5,339 nt of DNA from a virus (taxonomy: Duplodnaviria; Heunggongvirae; Uroviricota; Caudoviricetes): the IMG/VR virus record IMGVR_UViG_2548876867_000014. One strand, 5' to 3'. Made by a program: the position numbers and the translations under genes. The notes under the pieces are model-generated. The model saw only the letters and a program-made list of their open reading frames with translations. It was not told the origin of the DNA and ran no database searches. Positions 262-475 of the stretch are shown here, in pieces (the stretch's first letter is position 1; each line of letters opens with the position of its first letter).

Positions 262-293
262 TTCAATGGATTACCGTTAAATCATTTTAAAAT

Positions 294-340
294 CAGTAAG
301 TTGTATCGAGTTTGTATGCTTTACTGTCATTAACTTACTG
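294..340. repeat. 9-bp perfect inverted repeat CAGTAAGTT (294-302) / AACTTACTG (332-340) with iterated TGTAT motifs in the yfhL-int intergenic region
   Basis: Read directly: the arms are exact reverse complements separated by 29 bp. TTGTAT/TGTATG recurs at 301-306, 312-318, 339-344 and 354-358. Function is unknown; possibilities are integrase arm/core sites or an operator. Confidence 0.4.
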
Positions 341-355
341 TATGTTGATCCAGTG
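336..355. promoter_or_regulatory. LexA (SOS) box-like sequence TACTGTATGTTGATCCAGTG
   Basis: CTGT-N8-cCAG, satisfying the CTG-N10-CAG core. The left half TACTGTAT is identical to the E. coli LexA consensus half-site (TACTGTATATATATACAGTA, from memory); the right half matches 6/8. It lies about 75 bp upstream of the yfhL ATG and about 120 bp upstream of the int ATG. Sequence-only call. Confidence 0.25.
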
Positions 356-475
356 TATTTAACCTTGATAAACTCAGTCCAGCAACACAAAACCGCAACA
401 CATTGCATTTTGTCCCGTAGAAAAGACTTGTATGTGTGAGCTTGTTTTCTGCGCCTACGCAGATAAGGATTGAGA

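Follow-up and report, generated by a model that had tools for sequence, protein, structure and literature searches.

Where a prophage ends, and what becomes of the gene at its end, is the question raised by a 5,339-nucleotide stretch of Caudoviricetes DNA (IMG/VR record IMGVR_UViG_2548876867_000014; hereafter the window), in which the bacterial ferredoxin gene yfhL and a phage integrase gene stand back to back. The window opens with yfhL on the minus strand (1..261), which encodes an 86-residue 2x[4Fe-4S] ferredoxin with Fer4 Pfam matches and carries the name yfhL in RefSeq. The ATG of a tyrosine integrase gene, int, follows on the plus strand at 476, such that the divergent spacer between the two genes (262..475) measures 214 bp, in agreement with the ~215 bp given in an earlier reading of this DNA from its letters alone (the original prediction). 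That reading went on to place the attachment junction within the spacer, in or next to the ferredoxin promoter, and to label the integrase P4-type. The analysis described here bears out that the left end of a prophage lies at this locus, at a protein gene instead of a transfer RNA (tRNA) gene, and moves the junction into yfhL itself. The window is very probably the attL of a temperate phage of ~41 kb, which has inserted by site-specific tyrosine recombination into the 5' coding end of yfhL, rebuilding the gene with phage sequence and leaving on its int side an attP arm of the anatomy set out below.

The junction and the att core

The junction was mapped by a three-way alignment of the window (attL), a K-12-like empty site (attB; L001) and the attR of strain 97-3250 (L002). 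In this strain the same genes as those of the window begin a ~41-kb prophage with head, tail and baseplate genes, lying between yfhL and yfhH, two genes which at the K-12-like empty site are on the same strand and 55 bp apart. An 18-bp block, TTCACACATATCACAATT, at window positions 214..231, is identical in attL, attB and attR; attL equals attB through ...GGGTTCACACATATCACAATT, and attR equals attB from TTCACACATATCACAATT onwards. On this alignment, strand exchange must fall inside 214..231. The block stands as a direct repeat at both prophage ends in 97-3250, within yfhL. Read on the minus strand the core is AATTGTGATATGTGTGAA, which encodes N11-C12-D13-M14-C15-E16 of YfhL, at the first CxxCxxC motif of the protein. 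The junction is, in other words, within the yfhL coding sequence, 31-48 bp to the left of 262..475, and the gene in the window (1..261, minus strand) is a hybrid of host DNA (1-213), shared core (214-231) and phage DNA (232-261).

Comparison with E. coli genomes gives the same boundary. All 5426 genomes match within window 1..520, the prophage-free ones over 1..251 only, and ~160 of the 5426 contain an attL of the window type. The megablast match reaches 251 because in the 30 bases after the core the phage has its own, diverged version of these codons; true identity with the empty site stops at 231. As for the possibility that prophage-free strains carry an identical 262..475, the interval is missing from them.

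Moreover, the phage side of the junction can be followed into viral contigs. An exact 35-mer over the core and its phage side occurs in 41 IMG/VR contigs. In 39 of these the left flank is yfhL, and they are therefore prophage calls; the two others, both metagenome-derived (L027 and L049), have on that side the distal phage arm known from attR. An attP reconstructed from the distal arm of 97-3250, the core and the window from 232 onwards is colinear with L027, at 97% over 1093 bp. The unbroken attP of these two contigs therefore assigns 232..475 to the phage, in whose free form this stretch is continuous with the other arm. The core at 214..231 accordingly has three lines of evidence behind it: identity of attL, attB and attR, the contiguous attP in two viral contigs, and a published 23-bp att repeat at the same place in another phage, OS31 (see below). 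The interval 262..475 is wholly phage DNA, comprising the int-proximal attP arm and the int regulatory region, and by analogy corresponds to the P' arm of lambda.

Two other placements of the junction can be set aside. A P4-type island or phage at a tRNA or transfer-messenger RNA (tmRNA) gene just outside the window, with yfhL a mere neighbour, is hardly credible, for although sub-threshold PF13356 hits recur at equivalent residues in four of four integrase homologues (13.6-17.4 bits), ARAGORN detects neither a tRNA nor a tmRNA, whether in the window or across the 50-kb locus of 97-3250 that spans both prophage junctions, in keeping with the tRNA-free reading of the original prediction, and the flanking direct repeats lie within yfhL, which together refute such a target. 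Equally little can be said for a yfhL coding sequence that is wholly host DNA, with the junction in the spacer (262-475), in or beside the native promoter of the gene. The intact open reading frame (ORF), with int only 214 bp from the yfhL start, would suit it, but the three-way att comparison refutes it: the match of prophage-free genomes ends at 251 and true identity at 231, attR is where the native 5' end lies, along with the yfhH-yfhL spacer, and in viral contigs 232-475 is continuous with the distal phage arm. The insertion is thus in the 5' coding end rather than in or next to the promoter, and the phage brings the start and ten codons.

Rebuilding of the yfhL 5' end

With the junction inside yfhL, the course of the insertion is as follows. 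The crossover falls inside 214-231, the DNA for NCDMCE of the first Fe-S cluster motif, and attP supplies diverged yfhL codons 1-10 along with its own upstream sequence, such that insertion restores an intact yfhL, and leaves the native yfhL start, its first 16 codons and the yfhH-yfhL spacer 41 kb off at attR. After integration, transcription of yfhL would have to start from signals in the phage arm. The same arm would hold an integration host factor (IHF) bend site, tandem arm-type Int sites and the int promoter and leader, and a LexA-like operator on the -35 of that promoter would render int transcription SOS-responsive.

The phage-borne codons 1-10, which include the start codon and Cys9 (232..261, minus strand), stand in place of the native MALLITKKCI; 9 of the 30 bases differ from those of the empty site, and the reading frame is kept. 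Cys9 is the first ligand of the first Fe-S cluster, judged by its place in CxxCxxCxxxCP. The displaced native 16 codons and the yfhH-yfhL spacer sit at attR, next to yfhH (L002 43005-43052). In each of the 15 elements whose arms were aligned (see below), phage codons 1-10 keep the frame of an unbroken ORF. Across these elements, phage codons 2-10 have synonymous (pS) and non-synonymous (pN) values of 0.58 and 0.10, a pN/pS of 0.17 from a small sample, which points to selection acting on the phage-borne peptide. Directly upstream of the start codon, a short motif, GTAAnnnnnTGAn, which is unlike the native leader, is kept in 13 of the 15. The fate of the gene in decayed elements bears on the same matter. 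In five loci (L014, L015, L017, L018 and L019; region 3001 onwards) int is frameshifted or truncated; their hosts are E. coli ECMA0423, Shigella flexneri SFBU1023, Erwinia tracheiphila, Pantoea sp. B65 and an Erwiniaceae isolate, and they look like stranded prophage remnants. The hybrid yfhL is full length in four of the five (L015, L017, L018 and L019), and L014 matches in fragments only. Taken together, the low pN/pS, the kept leader motif and an ORF that stays intact despite a decayed int argue, indirectly, that the rebuilt yfhL is in use.

The alternative is that the ORF is rebuilt yet inactive in practice, lacking a working promoter or ribosome-binding site. This is implied by the listing of yfhL among genes 'disrupted' by prophages (PMC3603311), and several observations lean the same way: a looser scan of the 15 sequences found no minus-strand yfhL promoter conserved in position, the sequence ahead of the start codon is a weak Shine-Dalgarno match, and the start codon of the phage-borne 5' end is GTG in three relatives (L006, L007 and L018, at ~2783-2787, from Pantoea stewartii, Symbiopectobacterium and Erwinia tracheiphila). 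Even so, we regard an inactive gene as unlikely in view of the signature of purifying selection on the phage-borne codons, the conservation of GTAAnnnnnTGAn and the survival of the hybrid ORF beside pseudogene copies of int. For a rebuilt gene that is in use, an effect of integration on its expression, as the original prediction envisaged, is plausible, because integration swaps everything upstream of yfhL.

As to the sequence that is displaced, the native yfhH-yfhL spacer (L001 2762-2816) has a perfect TATAAT on the yfhL strand (2802..2797), seen by eye, ~36 bp before the ATG; a consensus scan of this spacer found no full promoter and no terminator. After integration, the native spacer and the 16-codon yfhL stub point into the right end of the prophage. 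Also in this spacer, ~64 bp from the core, is CAACACAA, similar to the arm motif described below, possibly by chance.

A family of integrases at yfhL

The arrangement recurs well beyond E. coli. A scan for homologues, with one genome per species, gave 17 loci with integrase homologues at 58-98% identity, in Kluyvera, Citrobacter, Shimwellia, Sodalis, Pantoea, Symbiopectobacterium, Erwinia, Providencia, Serratia, Shigella and others, ~ten genera of Enterobacterales. In 16 of the 17, yfhL is divergent, with its start ~214 bp upstream of int. The target of the integrase, the DNA for CxxCxxC, is the best-conserved part of yfhL, as is also the case where tRNA genes are entered, and this accounts for the module working in ~ten genera. 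The remaining locus, on a Raoultella scottii contig (L013 2720-4389), encodes an integrase 90% identical over 463 residues, with neither yfhL nor the conserved arm upstream; its upstream sequence differs and appears to code for other small proteins, and the module there may be rearranged or in another context.

Among sequenced phages, the only match to the integrase is Serratia phage vB_SspS_OS31 (MT843276), at 76% identity over residues 1-464. The paper on this phage describes a direct repeat of 23 bp, TCGCACATGTCGCAGTTGATGCA, located in the 2x[4Fe-4S] ferredoxin gene of the host (Bujak et al. 2020, PMC7556043), and this repeat corresponds to window 215-237. The integrase of the window, with full-length homology to that of OS31, a divergent position at the 5' end of yfhL and repeats within yfhL, belongs to these yfhL-specific, OS31-type integrases. 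Further to the 'disrupted' listing above, yfhL has been named as the site of an Stx2b prophage (PMC10675304, PMC12029490). As an integration site yfhL is therefore already on record, and in this regard the present locus is an ordinary case.

Anatomy of the attP arm

The arm alignment covers 15 elements from ~ten genera and is almost ungapped, with 307 columns for 305 bases; the spacing of the arm is therefore constrained. Its conservation is blocky, four blocks at 0.74-0.94 identity being separated by spacers at 0.41-0.49. The expectation that the interval carries recombination or regulatory signals appears on this pattern to have been correct, although the signals are largely not those that the original prediction had picked out, as described at the end of this section.

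Nearest to the core of the four blocks is a predicted IHF site, AATCAGTAAGTTG (291..303, plus strand; consensus WATCAANNNNTTR), in a block of 0.75 identity. In all 15 sequences its W, ATCA and TT columns are invariant and its R is always a purine, such that all but one of the specified positions of WATCAANNNNTTR are either invariant or always purine. As in lambda, the predicted site falls between the core and the candidate arm sites. The latter are two tandem copies of GCAACACA on the plus strand, 13 bp apart (382-389 and 395-402), near-invariant in 15 of 15 sequences in a block of 0.90 identity, and these we regard as candidate arm-type Int-binding sites. The most conserved block of the spacer (0.94) is the motif ATGTGTGAGC (432..441, minus strand), which precedes the int ATG by 35-44 bp. 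The left half of the core recurs here in inverted orientation, as the reverse complement GCTCACACAT, and the motif may be a core-type Int site for autoregulation. The LexA-like palindrome that makes up the remaining block is taken up in the next section.

Beyond the spacer, a third copy of the arm-type motif, GTAACACA (488..495, plus strand), lies within int codons 5-7. All 15 sequences have AACACA here, though the encoded residues vary (TVTH, KATQ, TITQ), and the distance of this copy from the core is equal in OS31. Relative to the E. coli core, copies of the motif, written RYAACACA, stand at -105(-), -61, -49, +167, +180, +273 and +375(-), and the OS31 copies are at most 2 bp from these E. 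coli attP positions on both arms. The distal arms of the E. coli prophage and OS31 have little common sequence besides the motifs. This would be consistent with RYAACACA copies acting as Int-binding arm sites in an arrangement like that of the lambda P' arm. Two points temper this reading. RYAACACA resembles the CACACA of the core, so that Int may not have separate arm and core specificities, and no arm-binding domain reaches the Pfam threshold in the integrase.

The inverted copy at +375 (window 589-598, CTGTGTTGCT; minus-strand AGCAACACAG) lies inside int and has the same offset in OS31; it overlaps the codons of the invariant C39-V40-A41-A42, where protein and DNA constraint are inseparable.

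Several other features of the spacer were considered and put aside. The 9-bp perfect inverted repeat to which the original prediction had drawn attention, CAGTAAGTT at 294-302 and AACTTACTG at 332-340, is present, but 115 of 1000 dinucleotide-preserving shuffles of 262..475 yield a perfect inverted repeat of at least 9 bp, such that it is not significant, and, apart from the E. coli, Citrobacter and Kluyvera elements (the three closest relatives), none retains it even at 8-9 bp. A functional hairpin is rejected on these grounds, and the repeat is probably no functional unit by itself. The iterated TGTAT of the same prediction does occur five times on the plus strand (302, 313, 339, 354 and 429), well above the shuffles (mean 0.54; none of the 1000 reaches 5), but it is not a conserved unit. 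Among the 14 related elements the copies at 302 and 429 never recur, that at 313 recurs in three only, and the widespread ones, at 339 and 354, are those in and beside the LexA-like palindrome; as an arm site TGTAT is rejected, only the palindrome-linked copies recurring. Recognition of the tandem repeats as TTGC repeats of the lambda CII type was also set aside, given their N9 rather than N6 spacing, the repetition of the motif on the far arm and the lack of an annotated CII-like gene in this phage. An Rfam search of 1..700 gave no match, leaving a structured RNA in the spacer unsupported.

A LexA-like palindrome before int

The fourth conserved block coincides with a palindrome, TACTGTATGTTGATCCAGTG (336..355), of the form CTG-N10-CAG. 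Against a LexA matrix it scores 17.8 bits, within the range of E. coli LexA sites (12.5-26.8 bits by the same matrix), as a LexA operator would be expected to do. It is the sole hit of at least 8 bits in the window and one of only two of at least 14 bits in 50 kb. At the same alignment position all 14 relatives score 10.0-21.5 bits, and the mean pairwise identity of the block is 0.74, against 0.49 and 0.60 in the flanking stretches. The best position-conserved promoter-like arrangement of the arm overlaps it: a weak candidate int promoter (345..374, plus strand), with a -35 of TTGATC (345-350) within the LexA-like box, an 18-nt spacer and an extended -10, TGaTAAACT (366-374). LexA repression of this putative promoter is a reasonable hypothesis. 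Integron integrases are repressed directly by LexA and released on DNA damage. Were the same to hold here, 336-355 would be a genuine host LexA operator in the attP arm, with int repressed by LexA and freed by DNA damage independently of the phage repressor; we consider this possible but rather doubtful. If it is true, lysogeny might bring the host ferredoxin gene under SOS control, because the operator sits between the divergent int and the rebuilt yfhL.

Several points count against the LexA operator and the promoter proposed with it. The matrix derives from an informally compiled set of 27 E. coli LexA sites, the same ones that give the range of 12.5-26.8 bits. CTG-N10-CAG is kept in only nine of the 15 sequences; in the other six the left half is GTG or TTG rather than CTG, and the palindrome may therefore bind something else. 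The promoter candidate is present in 8 of 15 sequences only, by a looser position scan, and a stricter consensus promoter scan gave nothing within 262-475. A literature search for LexA-controlled phage integrase promoters gave nothing specific.

The competing explanation is that 336-355 is no LexA operator, but a site for the excisionase or Int, or the -35 and -10 of the int promoter itself. The asymmetry of its conservation speaks for this, the right half CAGT being invariant and the C of the left CTG lost in those six; a binder encoded by the module is possible, as the int-xis module moves jointly between unrelated phages, and the TACAGT in the box resembles a -10 hexamer in several relatives. 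The 17.8-bit score, the CTG-N10-CAG kept in nine sequences and the rarity of such hits in the window and the 50 kb speak the other way. A non-LexA role for 336-355 is a serious possibility, if still short of probable.

A second LexA-like box, GACTGTAATTATGTACAGTT (17.2 bits; L002 42810-42829), lies ~195 bp from the core on the distal attP arm of 97-3250, 13 bp upstream of an unannotated minus-strand ORF of 88 residues (L002 42531-42797). OS31 has a published LexA box and a dinI-like gene at the equivalent distal-arm position. With LexA-like boxes at this position in both of two unrelated phages, an SOS-boxed small gene therefore adjoins attR in both.

The integrase and the remainder of the window

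The integrase (476..1873, plus strand; 465 residues), with a Shine-Dalgarno sequence AAGGA at 465-469, matches PF00589 just above threshold (30.4 bits against a cut-off of 27.1, residues 246-359) and PHROG 1, 'integrase' (E = 2e-26). In an alignment of 11 homologues, of 84% mean column identity, R268, K301/K304, R386, H416/H417 and Y429 are invariant, and the His of HxxR is apparently replaced (T383 or N382), the catalytic residues being assigned by eye, without a structural alignment. The P4-type label of the original prediction is not established, the target being no tRNA or tmRNA 3' end and the match to PF13356 (P4-type arm-binding; Arm-DNA-bind_3/DUF4102) reaching 13.6 bits against a cut-off of 27. 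Given that this resemblance recurs in the homologues, over residues ~58-110, a distant P4-type relationship is possible. No NCBIfam model matches the integrase, and neither sequence nor profile comparison with the PDB turned up a relative.

Convergent with int is a gene for an excisionase-like helix-turn-helix protein of 66 residues (1870..2070, minus strand), which matches PHROG 66, 'excisionase'; its HTH_17 match, at 24.9 bits, is under the cut-off of that model, and the gene at the same position in OS31 carries an excisionase annotation. The rest of the window holds genes for an SNF2 helicase, a VRR-NUC protein and a DUF4406 protein, and the 3' part of a DNA polymerase gene. Between the helicase and VRR-NUC genes, on the strand opposite to these neighbours, is an AT-rich ORF of 241 residues with hydrophobic stretches (3482-4207), which has no Pfam or PHROG match and for which RefSeq has a shorter hypothetical protein; it may be an accessory cargo gene.

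Of the window, 1..5285 is matched at 97-99% by 77 complete E. coli genomes, and matches to related prophages end at 5285. The last ~54 bases (5286-5339) are the end of a multi-copy element with 18,593 occurrences across 4,545 E. coli genomes, both chromosomal and plasmid-borne, in one example with a transposase ORF directly downstream; presumably it is the left end of IS2, which it resembles. This element end breaks the prophage DNA polymerase gene, and the window's own copy of the prophage is therefore probably defective. The exact 5285/5286 junction is in no genome of the collection.

Comparison with known systems

What is new at this locus is the exact E. coli core, the rebuilding of yfhL, the attP form in viral contigs and the conserved map of the arm, the last of which provides concrete testable sites. 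The prophage boundary is corrected to a position inside yfhL rather than in the spacer, and the gene is rebuilt rather than 'disrupted', both of which are relevant to prophage boundary calling and to the typing of the prophages, Stx and other, that occupy yfhL in pathogenic E. coli.

The nearest known system is OS31. The two share an integrase of the same family (76% over 465 residues), the order att, int and convergent excisionase, the same place in a yfhL-type ferredoxin gene, and the spacer blocks and motif positions on both arms. The rest of OS31, a lambda-like siphovirus, is unrelated, whereas the element here has a DNA polymerase, an SNF2 helicase, a VRR-NUC protein and a baseplate-type tail. 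Its published repeat is of 23 bp, against an 18-bp identity block in E. coli, and the OS31 paper (PMC7556043) gives no account of rebuilding of the 5' end of the gene or of arm sites.

Lambda attP offers a parallel of architecture: a short core, long arms and int beside one arm, with a site of IHF consensus and tandem direct repeats on that arm and repeats on the other. There is no sequence similarity, however, and here int points away from att with its own upstream region, the core falls within an ORF, a distance of ~170-190 bp, greater than that of the lambda P'1-P'3 sites, separates the tandem repeats from it, and the integrase has no demonstrated arm-binding domain. With P4-type integrases there is common membership of the tyrosine recombinase superfamily and a weak, consistent, sub-threshold resemblance to PF13356; the system here differs in having no tRNA, in targeting the 5' end of a protein gene, and in an integrase with PF13356 under threshold and no NCBIfam model.

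Other elements, too, make good the gene that they enter. Phage 21 and e14 integrate at icd with replacement of its 3' end (cited in PMC3603311), and, as here, the insertion is in a conserved protein gene whose ORF is kept whole by a phage-borne duplicate. In those cases, however, it is the 3' end that is replaced, with promoter and start untouched, whereas here the start and all upstream of it come from the phage. The islands and prophages of the dusA-associated integrases insert in the 5' end of dusA and substitute their own, and the displaced one stays at the far boundary of the element (Farrugia et al. 2015, PMC4482086). The target gene and the att consensus (21 bp) are different, but in both systems the 5' end of a conserved housekeeping gene is swapped for that of the element. 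At yfhL an in-frame new start and N-terminus are found at one junction and the displaced native 5' end at the other, and yfhL thereby joins the short list of housekeeping genes with an element-replaced 5' end, of which dusA is the described case.

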